The notes beneath the pieces were generated by a model that worked only from the letters and a program-made list of their open reading frames with translations, did not search any database and was not told the DNA's origin. From NCBI GenBank assembly GCA_016933055.1, contig JAFGBS010000022.1:9564-41563 (forward strand): a stretch of DNA of 32,000 bases, read 5' to 3'. The translations under genes were made by a program, and so were the position numbers. Shown here one piece after another: positions 3,593 to 32,000 of this stretch; position 1 is the stretch's first letter, and each line of letters begins with the position of its first letter. Origin of the DNA: Promethearchaeota archaeon (GTDB taxonomy: Archaea > Asgardarchaeota > Lokiarchaeia > Sigyniarchaeales > Promethearchaeaceae).

Positions 3593-3997
3593 TTAATCCA
3601 ATAACCTTTTTTGATATTGGAGATCTTGGATCTCTGTAATATTTTGGGAAGCTTCCAAACACCCTAAATACCCTCCCTCTGGGTCCCTCAGAGCATAATA
3701 TTCGATTAAAACTTTCTGTTTTCCCTCTAATCCTTTAATATCGAGATCAATCCAAAATCTTGCTTTATCCCTACTTCCATTTTTCATTTCTTCAATAATT
3801 TTCTCTACTTTATCGACACTCTTTGAAGGGTGACAATTTCGAACATTGCGACCTACCACACCTTTAGGGCGTTTAAAAATTCGAGTTTCATGTTTATTCC
3901 AACCAACTACTTCATCACTAGCATCTATAATGGAGAATTCGATAGGGATTGTTTCAAAAAACGCTTCCAGAATTTCTTTAGGTAATGTTCCGATCAT
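3593..3997 (-). CDS. Stand-alone PAS-domain protein (PAS_10/DUF438-associated type)
   Basis: ETIPIEFSIIDASDEVVGWN...VVGRNVRNCHP...YYALRDPEGGYLGCLEASQNIT matches this PAS subtype. Confidence 0.85.
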   Translation of the reverse strand: MIGTLPKEILEAFFETIPIEFSIIDASDEVVGWNKHETRIFKRPKGVVGRNVRNCHPSKSVDKVEKIIEEMKNGSRDKARFWIDLDIKGLEGKQKVLIEYYALRDPEGGYLGCLEASQNITEIQDLQYQKRLLD

Positions 3998-4054
3998 AAT
4001 ATTATAATTAGGTTAATAGTATTTTAATCTGGTTTAAACCCAACGTGTGATCTG

Positions 4055-4249
4055 TCACTTCATTTTTTTTTGCACTTTTGTAATCATAATTTTACCATCG
4101 TGAAATAATACCCAACGAATTTTATCCCCATTTTGGAATCCAAGTGTATCTACAATTTCTTTTGGAACAGTAGTTCTTCTCCTGCTCTCACGAATCGTTA
4201 TCGTGGTTTCTGTCACATAATCGACATCATTCATATCAATTATTGTCAT
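4055..4249 (-). CDS. AbrB/MazE/SpoVT-family DNA-binding protein
   Basis: RRTTVPKEIVDTLGFQNGDKIRWVL swapped-hairpin motif; 64 aa; no adjacent toxin gene seen. Confidence 0.8.
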   Translation of the reverse strand: MTIIDMNDVDYVTETTITIRESRRRTTVPKEIVDTLGFQNGDKIRWVLFHDGKIMITKVQKKMK

Positions 4250-4482
4250 GGGGTTTTCATGATTTTCACAATTTTAAAAGTTTGGTCTAACACCAAAGGA
4301 TATGGAAAAGAATGTTAGGGTTTCTAAGTCGTGTTGTTATAAGTGTAAGCATTTTCCTATGAAGTTCTCATTTATTGATGCCAGAGGGTATTGATTCTGT
4401 GTATGGTTATTAAGGAATCAAACCAAACTAAAGAAATCAAGGTGCAAGTATCACGATTAACATAACCACGGTATCCCCGATA

Positions 4483-5292
4483 GTGTATTATATTCTCATT
4501 TCGGTCTTAGCATTAATATGTGAATATATAGATTCTGCGATGGGTGGCGGGTATGGTACTATCCTTGTACCGATTCTCCTTGCATTTAACATCGATAGAA
4601 GATTTTTGATTCCAGCAGTATTATTCACTGAAATCTGGACCGGATTGGGTTCAGCACTTCTTCATCATTTTGTTGGAAATGCGGATTTTCATGTTAAGAT
4701 TTTGAATGGGAAAGAAGCGGAACAGAATGGGAAAATTATATTATCGCAAGACTTTAAAATAGCCATAATTCTGGCTGTATGTGGTGTCATAGGGGGGGTT
4801 ATTGCAGCTTATGCTTCTATCAAAATAAATGATGTCATAATGAAAACCTATATCGGAAGTTTAGTTCTACTTATGGGTTTTCTTGTTCTGATAAGATTAA
4901 AGTGGAAGTTTAAATGGTGGAAGATTTATGGAATAGGTTTGATCGCCGCATTCAATAAAGGATTAAGTGGAGGGGGATACGGGCCATTAATTTCTTCTGG
5001 TCAGATTATCGCGGACAGAAATCCACGACAAGCGGTTGCATCTACTTCACTTTCCGAAGCAGTTGTGTGTGCAGTTTCACTCATCATAACTGCTACAATT
5101 CCTGAAAATCAAAGCATAATTTTCACACTTCCATTCCTGCATTTTATTATTGCTCTTCTTATAGGTGCTCTTCTCTCCGTTCCCTTAGCAGTTCTAACTG
5201 TTAAATACATTCCCATTAAAAAAATGCAACCCATAATTGGGATTGTTACTGTGCTACTTGGGATCTTTACAATAATAAAAACCTATATGTAG
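4483..5292 (+). CDS. Sulfite exporter TauE/SafE family membrane protein
   Basis: Duplicated glycine-rich motifs DSAMGGGYGTILVP and GLSGGGYGPL; about 8 TM segments; GTG start. Confidence 0.85.
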   Translation: MYYILISVLALICEYIDSAMGGGYGTILVPILLAFNIDRRFLIPAVLFTEIWTGLGSALLHHFVGNADFHVKILNGKEAEQNGKIILSQDFKIAIILAVCGVIGGVIAAYASIKINDVIMKTYIGSLVLLMGFLVLIRLKWKFKWWKIYGIGLIAAFNKGLSGGGYGPLISSGQIIADRNPRQAVASTSLSEAVVCAVSLIITATIPENQSIIFTLPFLHFIIALLIGALLSVPLAVLTVKYIPIKKMQPIIGIVTVLLGIFTIIKTYM

Positions 5293-5717
5293 TTTTGATT
5301 AAGAAAACGTCATCAATTATGCTAAATCGAATGATAAATGAAGGAGATCATCAAGTATCGGGAATCGGAGTTCATAGTGAAAAATTCCTCCAGTTTTTGA
5401 TCTACTATAAATAATGAATAAATAATTCATTTTCTATAAGAATAGAACTTATAATAGATGTTTGATGTATGTACACAATAGTAACTATCCAAAATATACA
5501 AAATCTTGAAATATTGGTGTTTCAATATATTTCATTCTATTTTAGAATTCTATCTTGGACTAAAGTTCTGAAAACCTACTTTCCATTGAATTATTAGCCA
5601 TATAGAAATGGAATTCCATATGAAATCACTTGAATAGATAAATCACATGTATTTCAATTAATATAATATATTTTTGGATAAAATGCGATAAATATTAAAG
5701 GAGATTATTTAACAAAT

Positions 5718-6095
5718 ATGAATTGTCCAAATTGTGGAGTAAAAGTAAGTCTCCATGCTAGAAATTGTTATTCGTGTGGGTATCTACAACCCCAAACACA
5801 GACTGCAGTCGATCCGCGATCATTTCCTGTAATTTCATTTAACACACAGAATATAATACCGGCAATACCACCGGGGAAAGTCCCTGTATCGGAAAAATCT
5901 AAAACCATAACCATTATACTATGGGCATTTCTCGGAATTTTCGGAGCTCATCATTTCTATGCTGGAAGAATAGGATTGGGATTGTTATATCTGTTCACCA
6001 TAGGAATCCTTGGAGTGGGATGGCTAGTCGATTTTTTTCTGATTCTAACTGATCGATTTAAGGACATATTCGGAAATCGAATTTCACAACCATAA
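5718..6095 (+). CDS. Zinc-ribbon + TM2-domain protein (paralog 1)
   Basis: N-terminal CPNCG...CYSCG; C-terminal KSK...FLGIFGAHHFYAGRIGLGLLYLFT.G..GVGWLVD TM2 motif. Confidence 0.9.
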   Translation: MNCPNCGVKVSLHARNCYSCGYLQPQTQTAVDPRSFPVISFNTQNIIPAIPPGKVPVSEKSKTITIILWAFLGIFGAHHFYAGRIGLGLLYLFTIGILGVGWLVDFFLILTDRFKDIFGNRISQP

Positions 6096-6148
6096 TGGAT
6101 TTTTAATTCTTTATCTAGTTTTTTAAACCATGATGAAAACTAGTTCTC

Positions 6149-6706
6149 ATGGGTGTTAATATGCCTAAAGTGAATCCTGACCTAATACAGTGGTCCATTG
6201 ATTCCGCAAAAAAACCGATGAAATTCGTAGCGATATGGAGGGAACATGGGGGTCCTTTAATCAGTGATCTAGATGCGATATGGGATAAGCTAGGTGATAC
6301 TGGATATATGTGGGCTCGAACCATTTATCTTATCCAACAAATCACAAGCACCCTAGATTTATCAAATCAATTACGGGATAACGCTTGTTATAATGTTCCC
6401 CTATTGGAACGAATGATCTATGGTGGTTTTGTTCATTCTCCGGCTAAAGATGAATCAGAAGAGGATGAACTATTTAATGTTTATAAATTTCTTATTATTG
6501 AACCGCTGACACTCGTTTCCTTGATATGGACTGCCCGATCGATGAATTATGCTATCGAATCCGTGGAAACTCTTGTGGAATACATAGATCTGGAAAATTA
6601 TGAAACTAACGAATCCCTCCACCACCAAGTCGATATTTATCTTAATTACTTGTATTCGTTAGATGCGTTAAATTTTGATGATTCTGATTGGTTAGTGCAA
6701 GATTGA
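6149..6706 (+). CDS. Hypothetical soluble protein (185 aa), possibly longin/uDENN-like fold
   Basis: Uninterrupted ORF with plausible composition; the fold suggestion is inference only (see findings). Confidence 0.7.
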   Translation: MGVNMPKVNPDLIQWSIDSAKKPMKFVAIWREHGGPLISDLDAIWDKLGDTGYMWARTIYLIQQITSTLDLSNQLRDNACYNVPLLERMIYGGFVHSPAKDESEEDELFNVYKFLIIEPLTLVSLIWTARSMNYAIESVETLVEYIDLENYETNESLHHQVDIYLNYLYSLDALNFDDSDWLVQD

Positions 6707-6949
6707 GTTTTTTTATATAGACTAATCTCATTTTAGTACCAAAAGAAGGATTTTCATTAGAAATTGTATCATAACACTTCGTCAGAGCCATTTTTTCAAA
6801 ATTTTATCGAATGTAACTAATAGGTCTGAATATTTATAGATGAACCTAAAATCAAGCAATCTATAAATTCTCAATGAATTTTTTTGAATGTACAAGCTAA
6901 AATGATTAATTCTGGATAAAAATTCGGGGTTTTCTTTAATATACGACAA

Positions 6950-8170
6950 TTAATTCTCCAATTGGTTTAACTGCTCTATTATTTTTGGTAATTGGATGTA
7001 AAAGTCTTCCAAATCAGTGAATTCTTCGTAAAACGAACTGATCTTCGGATATATTCGTTTAATTTCTTCAAAAATTGGATTTTGGGAAAGTCGTAGAGAA
7101 GTCAATTGATGCATTTTAGTAAGACCTTCAATGTCTTCAATTCTATTATTTCGTACTTCTAATGTTGTCAATGCTTTCAAATTCTTAAGAGATGGAATTG
7201 ATTTAATAACATTATTATCCAGATACAATTGCTGAAGACAAGTCAACGAATCTAAGTTTTTAATAAGACGAATTTGATTATCATTGAAAAATAACGCATT
7301 GAGTTTAGTTAAAGAATCTAAATTTCGTATGGATTTGATATTGTTTGCACTAAGATCAAGCCATTTTAGGTTTTTAAGATGGTTTAGGCCCGATATTTTT
7401 TGAATATTATTAAGGGAAAAATTCAATTTTTCTAACTGTGAAAGATCATCTAAGCCGGAAATTATCTTTATTTCATTGAGAGATGCATCTAACTCCATTA
7501 ATTTGGGGCATTGAATAAAATTGACTTCAGAAATTTGATTATTGCTTATGTCTAATTTTTTTAACGCATCCAATGGACCGATTTCAAATCGGTTAACTAT
7601 TCGGTTACTCTTTAGGTTTATCTCTTGAAGTTTCGGTAAATTTTCTATATTCGATATTGTTGTAATCTGGTTATTCTCTAAGTTAAGTATCTTAAGGTTA
7701 CGGAGATCTTTTAAATCGGGAATTCTCTTAATTGCATTGTTTGCAGCATTCAGAATAGAAATGGAAGGGAATTCTTTGACTTTATCTAGATATGTTATTT
7801 TATTGTTTGAAAGATTGAGAACTTGAAGGTTGTTCAATTCTATGATTTTTTCTATCTTACGAATATTATTCCATTGTAAGTTGAGATCGGTTAATTGAGG
7901 TAAATTCTCAATCCCATCCACATTTTCTATCTGATTATCATACAAATTTAATTTTACAAGATTCTCCAACTCTAAGAAACAAGGTAATTTTTGGATCTGA
8001 TTCTGACTCAAATCTAATATTTGGATTTGGTTTAATAGTGATTTATCCAGTTGGAAAAGCGGATTAATATCATATAATTGCGATTTTGAGAGATTTAAAA
8101 AGACGTAATCATCTATTTGTTCAAGAAAATACTCTTTGCCGTCTATTATTACTGAGTTTAATTTACTTAT
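6950..8170 (-). CDS. Leucine-rich repeat protein (SDS22-like, about 22-aa repeats)
   Basis: About 14 LxxLxLxxNxIxxI repeats. The frame stays open from 8185, so the track's TTG start (8011) lies inside a repeat. The start given here (ATA 8170) is inferred. Confidence 0.9.
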   Translation of the reverse strand: MSKLNSVIIDGKEYFLEQIDDYVFLNLSKSQLYDINPLFQLDKSLLNQIQILDLSQNQIQKLPCFLELENLVKLNLYDNQIENVDGIENLPQLTDLNLQWNNIRKIEKIIELNNLQVLNLSNNKITYLDKVKEFPSISILNAANNAIKRIPDLKDLRNLKILNLENNQITTISNIENLPKLQEINLKSNRIVNRFEIGPLDALKKLDISNNQISEVNFIQCPKLMELDASLNEIKIISGLDDLSQLEKLNFSLNNIQKISGLNHLKNLKWLDLSANNIKSIRNLDSLTKLNALFFNDNQIRLIKNLDSLTCLQQLYLDNNVIKSIPSLKNLKALTTLEVRNNRIEDIEGLTKMHQLTSLRLSQNPIFEEIKRIYPKISSFYEEFTDLEDFYIQLPKIIEQLNQLEN

Positions 8171-8346
8171 GATTTTTCCCGCCTTTTAAAATGAATTTGA
8201 ATGAAATTTTAATAACCATCTCTAAGAAGTTACACTTCGCTATTATGAATAAAATAATTAGAATTATTCCTTATTGGTTTAAGATTCAAACGTAATAATA
8301 TCAAAATTTGTGGGTCAATGATTTCAATAATCGTATATCAGATGAT

Positions 8347-9588
8347 TTAATTTGCAATAATATCGTCGTCATGATCAAGATTTTTTGGAAATATCTTCTT
8401 TTTTCTACCTTGCTTTTTTATTTCAATTAAGTCAAGTTCCTTTAATTTCTCGATATGATAAGCAATCGTTTTTCGATTAACTTCTAATTTTTCGGTGATT
8501 TTATTATTCCACATCCCGGGATCTTCATTAATCATTTGTAAAATTCTAAATGTTAATTCGCTTTTTTGAAGCTTTAATTCTATATTCGAAATGGGATTTT
8601 TTTGATAATACGGAAAATATACAAGGAAATGCGCCACACGTTCTTTTTTGATGATTTTATAACTTTCCAATACATCAAGATGCCAGGCTAAATTCCCAGG
8701 AGAGAGACTAGTTTTACGTAATAATTCATTAAAGTGAATTCCTGGTTCATTTAAAACAAGATCTATGATTTTATCTCGATTTTCATTTTCTAAAACTTCT
8801 TCTAAAGATAAATTATGTTGAGTTGATAATCCGGGGAGTAACCAATTTTTCAGTTCTCGAATATATTCTTCCTTTGAGATTACAAGGCTTATTGTAATTA
8901 CAATCAGAATAAGAACACTCGTAATTACTATTAATACCCATAAGGAAACGGGACCCGGTGGAGGAGAGGATTGAAATTCAACATTATATATGGTGATAAA
9001 ATAATCCTCGTTAGCTTTAAGACCCAAAACTTCGCCCTTGATGGTCCTCGTTACATTATTCCCTTGGTCTTCAGTTGGAATGATTTGCCATGCACTAAAT
9101 TCAGATTTACAATAAGCAATTGAGTAATTCTTTTCAGGATCTATACCCAGTAGAGAACTTTTTTGGAAAATTAAGGATAGATTATCAATTGTATTATTAC
9201 TAACAATATGTAGCACACTGTAATAATTCGGAATGAAAGTGAGGTTTTCAATTTGGGGATCTTTAGGAATATTCGATAAAAACTCTCCTATATCGATGCT
9301 AAATGATATATTAATTTCAATTGGATCAGAATCATTAATAATCATAGAAATTTGCCGATCAAGAATGGGAGAGAAATGTTGTATGCTAAAATTCACACTG
9401 GTGTTTGCAGTTAAACTGAACTCCTTGTTGAAATTCACGAAATCTAAGTAAATCGACTCGTATGGTTCAATATATCCGACATATTTATTTCCAAAGATAT
9501 CTATCGCTATAGTTTCATGAATTGTACAACTCAACAAAATAAAAAGAAATACACCAACCACAGCGAATGAACTTTTCTTTTTTAACAT
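8347..9588 (-). CDS. Membrane-anchored regulator: signal peptide, extracellular domain, one TM helix, two winged HTH domains
   Basis: Hydrophobic N-terminus; TM LWVLIVITSVLILIVITISLVI; ENENRDKIIDLVLNEPGIHFNELLRKT and ILQMINEDPGMWNNKITEKL...IAYHIEKL are HTH repeats of the archaeal double-HTH type. Confidence 0.85.
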   Translation of the reverse strand: MLKKKSSFAVVGVFLFILLSCTIHETIAIDIFGNKYVGYIEPYESIYLDFVNFNKEFSLTANTSVNFSIQHFSPILDRQISMIINDSDPIEINISFSIDIGEFLSNIPKDPQIENLTFIPNYYSVLHIVSNNTIDNLSLIFQKSSLLGIDPEKNYSIAYCKSEFSAWQIIPTEDQGNNVTRTIKGEVLGLKANEDYFITIYNVEFQSSPPPGPVSLWVLIVITSVLILIVITISLVISKEEYIRELKNWLLPGLSTQHNLSLEEVLENENRDKIIDLVLNEPGIHFNELLRKTSLSPGNLAWHLDVLESYKIIKKERVAHFLVYFPYYQKNPISNIELKLQKSELTFRILQMINEDPGMWNNKITEKLEVNRKTIAYHIEKLKELDLIEIKKQGRKKKIFPKNLDHDDDIIAN

Positions 9589-9624
9589 GTAAAATCTCTT
9601 TTAGTATTATTTAAAAAAAAAAAA

Positions 9625-10215
9625 TTATGCGGGAATTTCGCTTGGAATCTCAAAATTCAATGACACAGGAGTTAATGTTTTTTCAAGAACAACAGTATTT
9701 AATGGTTCTGGTAATGTCACCACAATGGAGATTGTAATATCTAAATGGAAAATCCCCGTCTCGCCATTCAATTCATCAGGACCTAAGAGAACCATAATAT
9801 CTTTTACTCCATCTCCTGCCAATTTGGTTGGTTCGAAGGTGAAAGATAATGAGGTACCACCAGGAGTCAATAAGTTAAATGTAATCTGTATTGACACAGG
9901 AACATCAATCTCACTATTTGCTTCTGAAGTTTTCAAGTTTCCTTGCATTTTACTTAATGCGTACTCATAAGCATTAATAGCTCGTTCATTAACTTGGGGC
10001 GGAGCATTCCATACTGCATCCCAACCATCAGGATTTGTACCCAGATCATCAGAAGAACTTGGTAAGCCCGCTGAGCTTATCATCAAACTCATATTAATTT
10101 CTGCACCATCTACGGTAAACCCATACATAAAAACTGGAATTAAGCCTACTAATGCCATACACGCGATGATTGCAGTCGATATTATTATAGCTTTTTTTGA
10201 AGTCATGATTTTCAT
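9625..10215 (-). CDS. Hypothetical N-terminally anchored membrane/exported protein
   Basis: Lys-rich N-terminus, hydrophobic helix, then a beta-rich domain; no family recognised. Confidence 0.75.
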   Translation of the reverse strand: MKIMTSKKAIIISTAIIACMALVGLIPVFMYGFTVDGAEINMSLMISSAGLPSSSDDLGTNPDGWDAVWNAPPQVNERAINAYEYALSKMQGNLKTSEANSEIDVPVSIQITFNLLTPGGTSLSFTFEPTKLAGDGVKDIMVLLGPDELNGETGIFHLDITISIVVTLPEPLNTVVLEKTLTPVSLNFEIPSEIPA

Positions 10216-10392: not shown

Positions 10393-11709
10393 TCACGTTA
10401 ATTTCACGTGAGCACGTGAAAGAATCTCTTGAGCCTTTTTTACATACTTTTTGATTTCTTCCTCTGAATGAAGTGGTGCATAAAAATGGAAATGAAAATG
10501 CATTTGGTTTCGGATTGTAAACACCGTGAGAACAAGAGCATTGAATGTACCTGAAACTCCTCCAAAAAAATTATGCAACTCATATTTTTGACTTTTTTCA
10601 CCTTCGTGGAACTGAGAGAACAAATCTAAATTTCCAAGATTAGTAACTACAAAAGGTTGATTTCTGCTACGTAATTCTACGAATAAAGGAGATAATTTTT
10701 GGATCAAATCTTTTGGAACTACCCTTGAAAACAATTTATAAATTTGGAATATCTGTTTACTTTCTAATCGATTATACAAATTTTTCTGAAATCTTTCTGC
10801 ATTTTTCCAGAAGCTAATGGAAAAATCATATTTTGTTTTGAATATTACACCACCTGCAAAAAGTCCCACATCCCCACCGATTTTCTGCTTTAATTTTCTC
10901 CTTAAATTAACAGGAGAATTAATTATAGGAAAATCCGGAAGAAATGCAGTGCAAATCGCACTATGCAGCTTTATATTGTGGCTTTTGCAATTTTTTAAGA
11001 ATAATTTCGTCTGATCTGTGTTAAAAACCCAAGAATAGGTACATAATTTCTGATTTTGATTGTTTTGAATGTCGATGACGGGTTTTTCCCGAGATGCAGA
11101 AAACAATTTAGAAAAGAATCTTCGGAACCCTACTATTATCTTTACACCAATATAGACACAGAAAAAACGAAAACGTGTTTTTGGTAATTTACTTTGAATG
11201 TGTAGGGGCAAAATCTCATCCAATTTCTTCATAAGAGGAAGAATTTTCGGATTACGATTCGGATTAGATAGAAAATGGAATAAGTCTAAAAATAGAAATA
11301 CCATTGACATTCCATCCCCGATCACATGCTGAAGAGTTAAAATTAGGTCTGTGAATTGGTCATCTTGAAGTAAAATCGCTCGGATTAAAGGTTTAGTGCA
11401 ATTTTCTCCCATTTCAAATTCTTTTGTAAATTCATTCTCAACTATTCTGTACAACTGAGTAGAACTTTCTCTGTTCATTATTTTTAACGGTATAGATTCA
11501 ATTTCTGGCCAAAACATGAAAGGTAGGTTCTGATTATCAGTATATATTTGTGAACGTAATGCGGGATGCTTGGTTTGAATTTTATCCAATGCTTTTCTCA
11601 GATCATCTGGAATTATTTTACCTTTTATAGAAATTGCCATCGAAATGTTAGACGGTTGTCCCAAAGTCCACATCATATATTCTAATTCATTTAGTTTCCT
11701 CGTGTGCAT
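10393..11709 (-). CDS. Condensation-domain acyltransferase (PapA5/alcohol acetyltransferase-like)
   Basis: QHVIGDGMS corresponds to the HxxxDG catalytic motif; KHPALRS, INSPVNLR and VVTNLG are typical of CoA-dependent acyltransferases. Confidence 0.85.
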   Translation of the reverse strand: MHTRKLNELEYMMWTLGQPSNISMAISIKGKIIPDDLRKALDKIQTKHPALRSQIYTDNQNLPFMFWPEIESIPLKIMNRESSTQLYRIVENEFTKEFEMGENCTKPLIRAILLQDDQFTDLILTLQHVIGDGMSMVFLFLDLFHFLSNPNRNPKILPLMKKLDEILPLHIQSKLPKTRFRFFCVYIGVKIIVGFRRFFSKLFSASREKPVIDIQNNQNQKLCTYSWVFNTDQTKLFLKNCKSHNIKLHSAICTAFLPDFPIINSPVNLRRKLKQKIGGDVGLFAGGVIFKTKYDFSISFWKNAERFQKNLYNRLESKQIFQIYKLFSRVVPKDLIQKLSPLFVELRSRNQPFVVTNLGNLDLFSQFHEGEKSQKYELHNFFGGVSGTFNALVLTVFTIRNQMHFHFHFYAPLHSEEEIKKYVKKAQEILSRAHVKLT

Positions 11710-13346: not shown

Positions 13347-13366
13347 ATCCTTTGTGGATTTTTTTT
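13347..13366 (+). terminator. Possible terminator after the ArsR-like gene
   Basis: ATCC-TTTGT-GGAT hairpin running into a T tract, 10 bp after the stop codon. Confidence 0.4.
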
Positions 13367-13369
13367 AGT

Positions 13370-13651
13370 AAAAATTTATCCCGTGATACCCACGTTCGGG
13401 GAATAGGGGGTATATAGTTCTGTCAATTTGGTGTAAGCTCAGGTACATCATGCTACTACTATGTATTCGACATTTGGGGTAGTTACTCGTGCTATCTTCC
13501 CGCACCGAGGACCGACCTATTCTGCATCTGAACGGGTATTAAATGGGTTTAAATTCGTAAATTGATTCGATTTTACGAGTTTGACGTTGTTTTATGATAG
13601 TATCATGTTAAAGGGATCAAATTTTAAATGGATAGACCCGTATAGATGTTG
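13370..13651 (+). repeat. Structured non-coding element, copy 1 (282 bp)
   Basis: Direct-repeat homolog of 15031-15363. The 3' 155 bp (13497-13651) align without gaps at 138/155 identity; the 5' part aligns in blocks separated by indels. Confidence 0.95.
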
Positions 13652-13804
13652 ATTAGATGAAAAAAAATTAGTTAAGAAGATCCACTCTCATCTATCACAT
13701 TTAATTTTTTCAATACACCCTCTGTCTCTTTAAAGGGACTTCCAGTTTACTATCCCATATCTCAAATAAATTCAAAAAATAAGTAGAAAGGGAATTTTCA
13801 GCTT

Positions 13805-14992
13805 CTACGTCCTCAGTATCATTGCAATAGTTGCTTTACAGATTTTTGCTAAAATTTCATAATCCAGGTATTTAGCTTCATCGGATTTTGTATGATAACC
13901 ATCCCATCGTAAGTATGCTGTATCAGTTAGAAATAATGCTGGAATGTCATGCTTCCAAAATGGCGTGTGGTCTGAAAGTAGTGCTGCAGGAAATACTTTT
14001 GCAATCTTTGAGAATGACATTGGTAAAAGGAATCCAATATAAGGTAAATCGACTGATTCTTCTTTCCCAACTTTTAAAAAATCATTATACAATTTTTTTG
14101 TGTTTTTATCCCCAATAACACAAGTGAAATTTCCTGTATGATCCTTGAATTTTGTTTTGTGTGTTCTTAATAGGAATCGAGGAATAGGCGGAAAAGGCTG
14201 AGTATGTTTACTGTTTTTAATGATTCCAACTGTATCATAATTTATCACTGCTGAAAATTTTAATCCTAAATCCAAGGCTTTTTCGACCCATAGAGAACTA
14301 CCAATAAGGCAAGCTTCTCCGAAATGAGTTTCCGTTGAATATGGTTTATATAATTCGTAAATCCCTCTATAATAATCCAATTCCTCTTTACTCATGCTAT
14401 CTTTGAATTTTTTAATGAAATCTTGGAGACCTTCATGTAACGTTCTTCCTGTGTCGCGTGCATGAATCATCATTTGTACATACGTTCGATATTGCTCAAT
14501 ATATTTTACCTTTGTAAATTGAAAATCTTGATTGACAATGCTGTATTTTAAATCTAATTCTCGTAGTTTTTTCCAGAAAACGGGATGTCCCTCTTCCAAA
14601 GTGAAGAAATTCGCAATCACATGTGGTGGGTTAGGGAGCTGGATCAAAATTCGGATTACCTCTAAACAAATTGCAACAGCAGTCAAATTATCATTCGCTC
14701 CGGGACAAAACTCTACCGAATCATAGTGGGAACAAATGCAGAATGCAGGTTGAGATTCATCTCCAATATGTGCTTCGATGTTTTCAAAAGTCTCAGGAAC
14801 CCCATCTAAAATAAACCCATGCGTCACCACTCGGGCACCATATTTAGCAAGTTCATCTCTGATATACGACGCTGCTTCATTCAGTTTATCCATGGTGTCC
14901 AATGGAAATCTTGGACCTTCTAAAATTCTTATATGCTGATAAATTCGTTCCTTATCAATTTGATCAAGTAATTCGTGAAATTTCTCCGTCAT
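13805..14992 (-). CDS. M28-family zinc metallopeptidase
   Basis: SHYDS, PGANDN, TLEE, NYDTVG, LSDH and YHTKSD supply the complete M28 metal-ligand set. Confidence 0.9.
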   Translation of the reverse strand: MTEKFHELLDQIDKERIYQHIRILEGPRFPLDTMDKLNEAASYIRDELAKYGARVVTHGFILDGVPETFENIEAHIGDESQPAFCICSHYDSVEFCPGANDNLTAVAICLEVIRILIQLPNPPHVIANFFTLEEGHPVFWKKLRELDLKYSIVNQDFQFTKVKYIEQYRTYVQMMIHARDTGRTLHEGLQDFIKKFKDSMSKEELDYYRGIYELYKPYSTETHFGEACLIGSSLWVEKALDLGLKFSAVINYDTVGIIKNSKHTQPFPPIPRFLLRTHKTKFKDHTGNFTCVIGDKNTKKLYNDFLKVGKEESVDLPYIGFLLPMSFSKIAKVFPAALLSDHTPFWKHDIPALFLTDTAYLRWDGYHTKSDEAKYLDYEILAKICKATIAMILRT

Positions 14993-15030
14993 ACTTGAGA
15001 AATGATTTAACCAATATAAAAATCCCTAGG

Positions 15031-15363
15031 AAAAATTTATCTCGTGATATCCAAAAATATTACGTTCGGTGAATAGGGGATATATAGTAAGAAGTTCTGT
15101 CCATTTGGAGGGAGGTTTGATTCATATTATACATATATGTGCCTCATGCTACTACTACGCATTCGGCTTTTGACCTATCCGAGGTAGGTGTTTATTCCTA
15201 CGCCCACGTTCCCGCACCAAGGACCGACCTATTTTACATCTATACGGGCATTAAATAGGCTTAAATTCGTAAATTGATTCCAATTTATATATTTGATGGT
15301 GTTTTATGATAGTATCATGGTAAAGGGATCAAATTTTAAATGGATAGACCCGTATAGATGTTG
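15031..15363 (+). repeat. Structured non-coding element, copy 2 (333 bp)
   Basis: Homolog of 13370-13651; contains a perfect 13-bp inverted repeat ACATCTATACGGG (15236-15248) / CCCGTATAGATGT (15349-15361). Confidence 0.95.
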
Positions 15364-15476
15364 TTAAGATAAAAGATGGACCCCTTAATCTTATTGAGAT
15401 AAATTTTATGTATACTTATTAATGGTACTCCATGAGTAAATAAAAGAAAAAATAACTTAAATATGGGAAAAAAACT

Positions 15477-31885: not shown

Positions 31886-31923
31886 AAATTAACAAAAAAA
31901 TTATTTTTGAATTATTAATCTTT

Positions 31924-31960
31924 TTTTACCGAAGCTAATCGGTAAAATTTTCCCTTTTTT
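31924..31960 (+). terminator. Hairpin plus T tract after the MFS gene
   Basis: TTTTACCGA-agctaa-TCGGTAAAA is a perfect 9-bp stem (31924-31947) followed by a T/C-rich tract. Confidence 0.6.
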
Positions 31961-32000
31961 TCCTTTGTACTGTACGGTCTTCTCCCTTCTCCCAAAGAAT

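Follow-up and report, generated by a model that had tools for sequence, protein, structure and literature searches.

Two non-coding repeats around a peptidase gene in a Promethearchaeaceae genome are probable members of a genus-restricted, orphan MITE family

The window analysed here is a 32,000-nt stretch (C31:9564-41563) of the genome of a Promethearchaeota archaeon, in which the gene for an M28-family peptidase stands between two copies of a non-coding element of about 300 nt. Our data indicate that these two copies are probably separately inserted members of a genus-restricted family of about 60 MITEs (miniature inverted-repeat transposable elements), which we call orphan because we found in the assembly no transposase that matches them. 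The genome (G000, 3.76 Mb in 36 contigs) is a metagenome-assembled genome (MAG) that is 91% complete, and the only other genome from the same genus, that of the congener G001, is 76% complete. In its RNA polymerase A'' subunit the source genome is nearest, among named organisms, to MAGs labelled 'Promethearchaeota archaeon' (86-89% identity), with Lokiarchaeum ossiferum at 64% and Promethearchaeum syntrophicum at 62%, which makes the host a Loki-type Asgard archaeon. A previous interpretation of this DNA, made without database searches and referred to here as the sequence-only reading, had proposed either a non-autonomous mobile element that forms a composite unit with the gene or recombination sites that define an excisable one-gene cassette. 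The non-autonomous mobile element is supported by the dispersed copies with their sharp common ends, by the inverted repeats and TA flanks, by the lack of coding capacity and by the absence of a transposase nearby; the composite unit and the cassette are not supported, for reasons given below.

Element family, its ends and its relatives

A repeat search and MAFFT alignment showed that the two copies lie on the same strand and start 1661 nt apart (13366 to 15027), as the sequence-only reading had claimed. They align without gaps over a block of 166 nt (13497-13662 with 15209-15374) at 88% identity; over the 3' ~155 nt of copy 1 the identity to copy 2 is 88-89% and the final 43 nt before the ends are identical, which agrees with the figures given previously (89% and 43 bp). 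Over their whole length the copies are 82% identical, and in the genome search the match of copy 2 to copy 1 (E = 2e-53) is far beyond chance. Alignment with other family members moved the ends by a few bases, to 13368-13653 for copy 1 and 15029-15364 for copy 2, and with these ends each copy is flanked directly on both sides by TA. The 155-nt segment of copy 2 has stops in all six frames, again as had been noted from the letters. The TTAG reported on both sides of copy 1 is indeed present (13365-13368 and 13653-13656); a 4-bp YTAR target duplication suits this copy and was rejected as it fails for most others.

Rather than being the only two in the genome, a possibility that the sequence-only reading had left standing, the copies in the window proved to be two of about 60. 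Using nhmmer with a profile made from full-length copies, we found 63 matches on 20 contigs, 31 of which span the whole model; a separate model of the last 120 nt of the element, the 3' module, gave 59 matches, and BLAST with copy 2 gave 44. Full-length copies measure 282-422 nt (about 285-430 nt). In canonical copies the terminal inverted repeats, TAATCAACATCTAT and ATAGATGTTGATTA, match at 13 of 14 positions, and the element starts with TA-(G/A)TCAACATCTAT, also written TA-(G/A)TCAACATCTATTCCGTGATA, and ends with ATAGATGTTGAT-TA. The 5' end comes in three variants, each present in several dispersed copies (CAACATCTAT, TAAATTCTAT and AAAA(A/T)TT(C/T)TAT), and both copies in the window carry the third.

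Comparison of copies across the genome speaks to how the two came to stand so close together. Over the whole model the nearest relative of copy 1 is a copy on another contig (C36:77006-77315, 90.6% identical, against 82% for copy 2). The 5' half of copy 2 is likewise closest to copies on C13 (84%) and C2 (83%), against 75% for copy 1, and the 3' half of copy 1 is 90% identical to copies on C23 and C36, against 87% for copy 2. The two copies thus appear to have arrived separately, as members of one subfamily, and a local duplication does not account for them. Nowhere else in the genome does the 1661-nt unit recur.

Ends and flanks were examined in 28 aligned full-length copies, most of which have TA outside both ends. 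Where two copies adjoin, as in the tandem pairs at C27:107597/107601 and C16:252915/252925 and in the tail-to-tail pair at C17:540039, they have exactly one TA in common, which places the boundary of the element at the TA; adjoining elements share a TA in the congener as well. Beyond the TA, positions -10 to -8 hold T in 21-24 of the 28 copies and positions +4 to +7 hold A in 20-26 of them, against an intergenic background of 34% T and 34.5% A. Read outwards from the element, each side has TA and 3 nt, followed by a T-tract on the 5' side and an A-tract on the 3' side, which implies that the target before insertion would have been a palindrome (T-tract/N3/TA/N3/A-tract) or that insertion would prefer terminator-like DNA.

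Inside the element the better-conserved 3' module, which corresponds to the 155-bp block of the sequence-only reading, begins at a second repeat core. This module is common to a second family of about 230-300 nt, whose different 5' half has a long hairpin with a tip of variable sequence and whose right flank follows the same pattern. The longest open stretch in the copies runs to 45-57 codons and is not conserved from copy to copy. Longer copies owe their length to internal hairpin expansions at one position; they were considered as nested insertions from which an empty site might be read, and were rejected because they contain no inserted elements.

Every family match is intergenic, as judged against a crude gene set that covers 85% of the genome. 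With respect to both upstream and downstream genes the elements are oriented at random (9, 8, 7 and 6 in the four classes), and the genes near them are unrelated and ordinary, among them epimerases, members of the URO-D family, a UvrD-type helicase, peptidases, a DNA methylase and MFS transporters; no transposase or recombinase was found among the genes that neighbour family copies. Taken as a whole, the dispersed repeats of this genome occupy at least 108 intergenic regions and about 20 kb. One of them, a different family whose members measure about 225-260 nt and number at least 15, opens with the same ATCAACATCTAT core and occurs at C2:179150-179400 and at the contig ends of C9, C15, C23, C24, C34 and C36. 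A partial copy of it lies at 31914-32000, at the contig end; apart from this and the spacers that hold the two element copies, no intergenic region of the window bears repeats.

Six contig ends fall inside copies of the element, and the ends of C18 and C35 share 83 identical element nucleotides. Such identical copies, which break the assembly, argue for recent activity or spread. Contig C18 (L125), of 3013 nt, starts and ends inside element copies: one end matches the end of C9 (a stretch of 31 nt is 100% identical and the family-profile scores are equal) and the other matches the end of C35 over the 83 nt, and we conclude from these matches that near-identical copies broke the assembly here. 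The two proteins encoded on C18 (320 and 431 aa) have signal peptides, are secreted or membrane-bound, and lack a Pfam match.

Distribution, turnover and the search for a transposase

The 3'-module model, with its 59 matches in the source genome, found 2 in the congener and 0 in 59 other genomes of the family and order. One of the two matches in the congener is a complete copy of 496 nt with both inverted repeats, which adjoins another element through a shared TA. The exact 14-nt repeat occurs 27 times in the source genome, 3 times in the congener and 0-2 times in 39 other genomes, with 0-1 for the reversed control, and two of the three sites in the congener lie in second-family elements of 231 nt. 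When copy 2 was compared by BLAST with 40 relatives nothing real emerged, as the two weak matches failed the family profile, and no further members were found among GTDB species genomes, IMG/VR, JGI metagenomes, plasmids and phages. A pattern scan matched genome (37), viral (13) and metagenome (0 and 114) contigs at the level of chance, none of these passing the nhmmer family profile, and a recurrent metagenome match with 77-nt spacing was an unrelated purine-rich repeat. As far as the available data go, the family is confined to this genus and about 30-fold more abundant in this species.

Two comparisons between the congeners bear on mobility. The orthologous spacer at C2:179139-179444 and G001 L117:1470-1824 holds a different repeat family in each congener, and both elements begin at the same position with the same inverted-repeat core. 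In the congener, a 5.7-kb island (L269, G001:C145:34000-47000, positions 3946-9678) lies between convergent epimerase and HD-domain genes and contains an MntA/HepT toxin-antitoxin pair, an MFS transporter, an ArsR-type regulator and three repeat elements; the orthologous genes in the source genome nearly abut (C24, ~2382-2413) and the island is absent. The ArsR-type gene of the island and the one that adjoins copy 1 in the window are only distant paralogues. These comparisons show turnover of elements between the congeners.

A transposase-encoding relative of the elements was sought in several ways. Comparison of the genome with itself revealed no multi-copy insertion sequence (IS), and a search for inverted-repeat pairs 0.7-6 kb apart gave no convincing element. 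The mariner profile Transposase_1 (PF01359) had no match, and the control genomes were equally silent for it. A match to DDE_Tnp_1 on contig C8 (7655 nt) was rejected, being weak, interrupted by stops and located on a bacteria-like contig without these ends; C8 also has a protein with a bacterial-looking signal peptide and may be contamination of the MAG. Solitary 3' modules were followed as a lead to the autonomous partner, and were set aside since the 3 kb that adjoin them share nothing and the modules are 3' ends of the second family. Contig C18, which lies between element halves, was also considered as the autonomous partner; its two proteins match no Pfam family and neither is a transposase. 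Genes that recur near copies were found to be ordinary genes. The partner transposase may be unassembled, extinct or carried on a plasmid or virus.

Several observations weigh against the interpretation as MITEs. No long repeat or open reading frame (ORF) in the assembly is bounded by these inverted repeats. The Pfam profiles for DDE_3 (PF13358, IS630/Tc1), the TnpB zinc ribbon, DDE_Tnp_4 and rve were all unmatched genome-wide while the control genomes responded, an absence which is that of a 91%-complete MAG and of a set of families that did not include Y1 (RAYT-type) transposases. The 5' end of both copies in the window, and of about 15 others, fits the 3' repeat poorly (~12/20). The divergence is high for MITEs, with a median pairwise identity of 62% and a maximum of 90.6% among full-length copies, and internal blocks are conserved despite it, so that a host function could be possible. 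No clean empty (pre-insertion) site was recovered, and the TA could be the outermost part of the inverted repeat instead of a target duplication: the region of the window has no synteny with the congener or with members of the taxonomic family, and three other loci with close relatives of the two copies have at most one conserved flank in the congener and no two-sided synteny. Transposition, the duplication of TA and the class of the transposase are what we infer from the anatomy of the elements.

In relation to known systems, the family resembles prokaryotic MITEs, which are likewise shorter than 500 nt, non-coding, bounded by inverted repeats, present in tens of intergenic copies, dependent on a transposase in trans and expanded in particular lineages. 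The present elements are small and non-coding, canonical copies have terminal inverted repeats, and many dispersed copies share common sharp ends; the assembly yielded no cognate autonomous element bearing these ends. They differ from typical MITE families in being far more diverged, in having a third, internal repeat core and in sharing the 3' module with a second family, and they differ from MITEs that have a parent IS in that no IS with matching ends is known or present here, in a comparison made without an IS database. The TA on both sides, the palindromic AT-rich target centred on TA and the insertion beside existing copies are shared with Stowaway-like, IS630/Tc1-mariner MITEs, from which the present case differs in that no DDE_3 transposase with matching inverted repeats is detectable in the genome and the TA duplication is putative. 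The flanks and target thus point to an IS630/Tc1-mariner (Stowaway-like) behaviour, and we leave the transposase superfamily open. We would class the family as a new orphan MITE family, and not as a composite transposon, an integron cassette or a known RNA family.

Archaeal MITEs are already known and have been reviewed, and SM1-SM4 of Sulfolobus are reportedly MITEs derived from ISC elements. Our full-text literature searches found no paper that combines MITEs with Asgard or Lokiarchaeal terms, and a broader search gave general surveys of archaeal IS and of Asgard mobile elements. According to a survey of archaeal IS from 2026, Asgard genomes have on average 8.5 IS each, of which IS200/IS605 is the most widespread; the survey touches on MITEs only briefly (PMC13343696). 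The source genome shows no match to the TnpB zinc ribbon despite the reported wide occurrence of IS200/IS605-TnpB in Asgard genomes (PMC13343696).

In the mechanism that would best fit these observations, a DDE-type transposase supplied in trans would bind the inverted repeats and the element would insert at the TA inside a palindromic AT-rich target (T-tract, N3, TA, N3, A-tract), with duplication of the TA, in the manner of IS630/Tc1-mariner elements. The preferred targets would lie in intergenic, terminator-like DNA, as a result of which copies would gather between genes, often side by side.

Structured RNA, domesticated repeats and the peptidase cassette

A more far-reaching proposal, to which we would give an outside chance, is that the elements form a genus-specific superfamily of TA-flanked elements for which the host genome has no recognisable transposase, that an Asgard transposase, either undescribed or borne by a virus or plasmid, moves them by recognising TAATCAACATCTAT ends and the palindromic T-tract/TA/A-tract target, and that direct copies drive the gain and loss of single genes and small islands. 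The latter is suggested by the 5.7-kb island that differs between the congeners together with an excess of single genes that are bracketed by two family members, six of which were seen (on C2, C6, C9, C10 and C31) against 1.0 expected (P = 0.0004, 5000 permutations of random placement over 3091 inter-gene slots, 57 of them holding the family). Direct orientation is found in five of the six bracketing pairs. However, the bracketing partner ranks near the bottom of the similarity list in four of the six pairs, and the partners are mostly from unrelated subfamilies. We read the excess as independent insertions that pile up in permissive, variable regions; the end of the element, GTTGAT-TA, resembles half of the preferred target and may also attract insertions beside existing copies.

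It is unlikely that the members of the family are genes for structured small RNAs, or cis-acting RNA elements, whose inverted repeats form a closing helix. Internal blocks are conserved at a median identity of 62%, hairpins of variable length stand at fixed positions, folding of the element strand is about 5 kcal/mol more favourable than that of its complement (Wilcoxon p = 0.02) and a few changes appear compensatory (for example ATACCC/GGGTAT in copy 1 and ATATCC/GGATAT in copy 2), all of which could be expected of such RNAs. The strand asymmetry is, however, also expected from the G+T-rich composition, and the mean folding energy of 31 copies, -78 kcal/mol, is only about 1.5 standard deviations (SD) below that of shuffled sequences (-71 kcal/mol, SD ~5). 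RNAalifold returned only the helix of internal core and 3' repeat for 17 copies (-0.87 kcal/mol) and zero base pairs for 22 copies of the 3' module; for the 8 closest copies (349 columns) it gave -19 kcal/mol, the covariation term being unfavourable at +0.63, and changes on both sides are seen in 4 of the 47 pairs. Variation of the 5' end (CAACATCTAT, TAAATTCTAT, AAAAATTTAT) is not compensated at the 3' end, the elements are oriented at random towards neighbouring genes, conservation does not reach beyond the genus, and there was no Rfam match at the gathering threshold or with E up to 10. No tRNAs were found.

We consider it rather improbable that the elements are a domesticated interspersed repeat, similar to repetitive extragenic palindromic (REP) sequences and bacterial interspersed mosaic elements (BIME) or to the Correia elements of Neisseria, which the host keeps as a terminator, insulator or protein-binding site and which may be immobile. 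Like those repeats, the present elements are strictly intergenic and abundant and have hairpin potential, with possible effects on termination or promoters; they differ in having an archaeal host, in being longer and in being known here from sequence alone. Oligo-T is a signal for termination in archaea, and T-tracts face inward from both flanks at a fixed distance. The copies are old and diverged and still have conserved blocks, and no transposase of the families searched is in the assembly. On the other hand, the tracts lie outside the element, because adjoining copies share a TA without them; the identical copies at which the assembly breaks speak for recent spread; where orthologous sites can be examined, copies are not kept at them between the congeners; and copy number differs about 30-fold between the two species.

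The remaining question is whether the direct copies make the peptidase gene itself mobile or excisable, either as a composite transposon that moves by its outer ends or as a cassette released by recombination between the copies. That a single ORF (13805-14992, PF04389) is all that lies between the copies was correctly seen before, as was a minus-strand promoter about 25 bp before its ATG, which we identify with a TATA-like box, TTTTTATAT (Table 1). The direct orientation and the 43 identical nucleotides at the 3' ends would suit recombination, as would the excess of mostly direct single-gene brackets, and in the congener same-strand family copies lie near both ends of the island that is missing from the orthologous site in the source genome. 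The peptidase is also patchily distributed among relatives and did not turn up in the 76%-complete congener. Its best homologues are 55-59% identical, and the homologue in a 55%-identical relative has different neighbouring genes. Nevertheless, we regard mobility of the gene as very unlikely. The copies are not sisters, each has its own TA flanks, the partners in four of the six brackets point to independent insertions, and the island in the congener extends beyond its right-hand copy and is not cleanly bounded by elements. The gene has a G+C content of 35.5%, the average of the genome being 35.3%, and no recombinase was found among the 7 ORFs scanned around it, no genome-wide integrase search having been made.

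The locus also differs from two kinds of known system. Two related elements in direct orientation flank one gene in composite transposons as well, but here the flanking elements are non-coding and non-autonomous, 82% identical and separately related to other copies, and the unit is single in the genome. An integron cassette is a poor match too, as the peptidase gene is transcribed opposite to the elements and these are oriented at random genome-wide. The greater closeness of copy 1 to the copy on C36 leaves the composite unit unsupported, and the same observation, with about 60 copies on 20 contigs, stops in all frames and no conserved open frame, leaves next to no room for an ordinary local duplication of one spacer, as the proximity and common strand of the copies might suggest, or for decayed protein-coding fragments. 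The peptidase gene is most likely an ordinary chromosomal accessory or resident gene that has by chance a copy in each flanking spacer. Copy 2 starts about 7 nt upstream of the TATA-like box and its opposite end lies 110 nt before a zinc-ribbon/TM2 gene, so that the core promoters of both genes were probably spared. The exact peptidase is present in just one other assembly, a Logan contig of 1479 nt that ends inside both copies, as repeats would predict.

Table 1. Positions in the window of the two element copies, their flanks and internal repeats, and the enclosed gene
Feature	Position	Strand	Description
Copy 1	13368-13653	+	286 nt, G+C 38.8%, no ORF; subfamily with degenerate 5' end (AAAAATTTAT in place of CAACATCTAT); canonical 3' inverted repeat ending ATAGATGTTGAT
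Copy 2	15029-15364	+	336 nt, G+C 36.6%, no ORF; same degenerate type of 5' end; 3' end one base short (GTTGT for GTTGAT)
TA 5' of copy 1	13366-13367		either a putative 2-bp target duplication or the terminal bases of the inverted repeat
TA 3' of copy 1	13654-13655		matches the TA at 13366-13367
TA 5' of copy 2	15027-15028		directly adjoining
TA 3' of copy 2	15365-15366		directly adjoining
T-tract, 5' flank of copy 1	13360-13366		fits the flank pattern of the family
A-tract, 3' flank of copy 1	13660-13667		mirror of the T-tract at 13360-13366
Internal inverted-repeat core of copy 1, TTCTGCATCTGAACGGG	13520-13536	+	complementary to the 3' end, 13637-13652
Internal inverted-repeat core of copy 2, TTTTACATCTATACGGG	15232-15248	+	complementary to 15349-15363
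M28-family peptidase gene	13805-14992	-	395 aa; Pfam PF04389, E = 1.3e-18; only gene between the copies
TATA-like box of the peptidase gene, TTTTTATAT	15014-15022	-	23-30 nt upstream of the ATG at 14992

Elsewhere in the window, an ORF of 438 aa on the minus strand (10393-11709) matches a condensation domain (PF00668, E = 1e-12) of nonribosomal peptide synthetase-like or acyltransferase type, which is unusual for an archaeon.

The locus calls for caution before such repeats are described as novel RNAs, cassettes or recombination sites. Repeats of this kind break the assembly of Asgard MAGs, six contig ends being due to the present family alone, and so matter for annotation. With dispersed repeats in so many intergenic regions and no detectable transposase of the families searched, this genome is a useful case in which to find the transposase that serves these ends.

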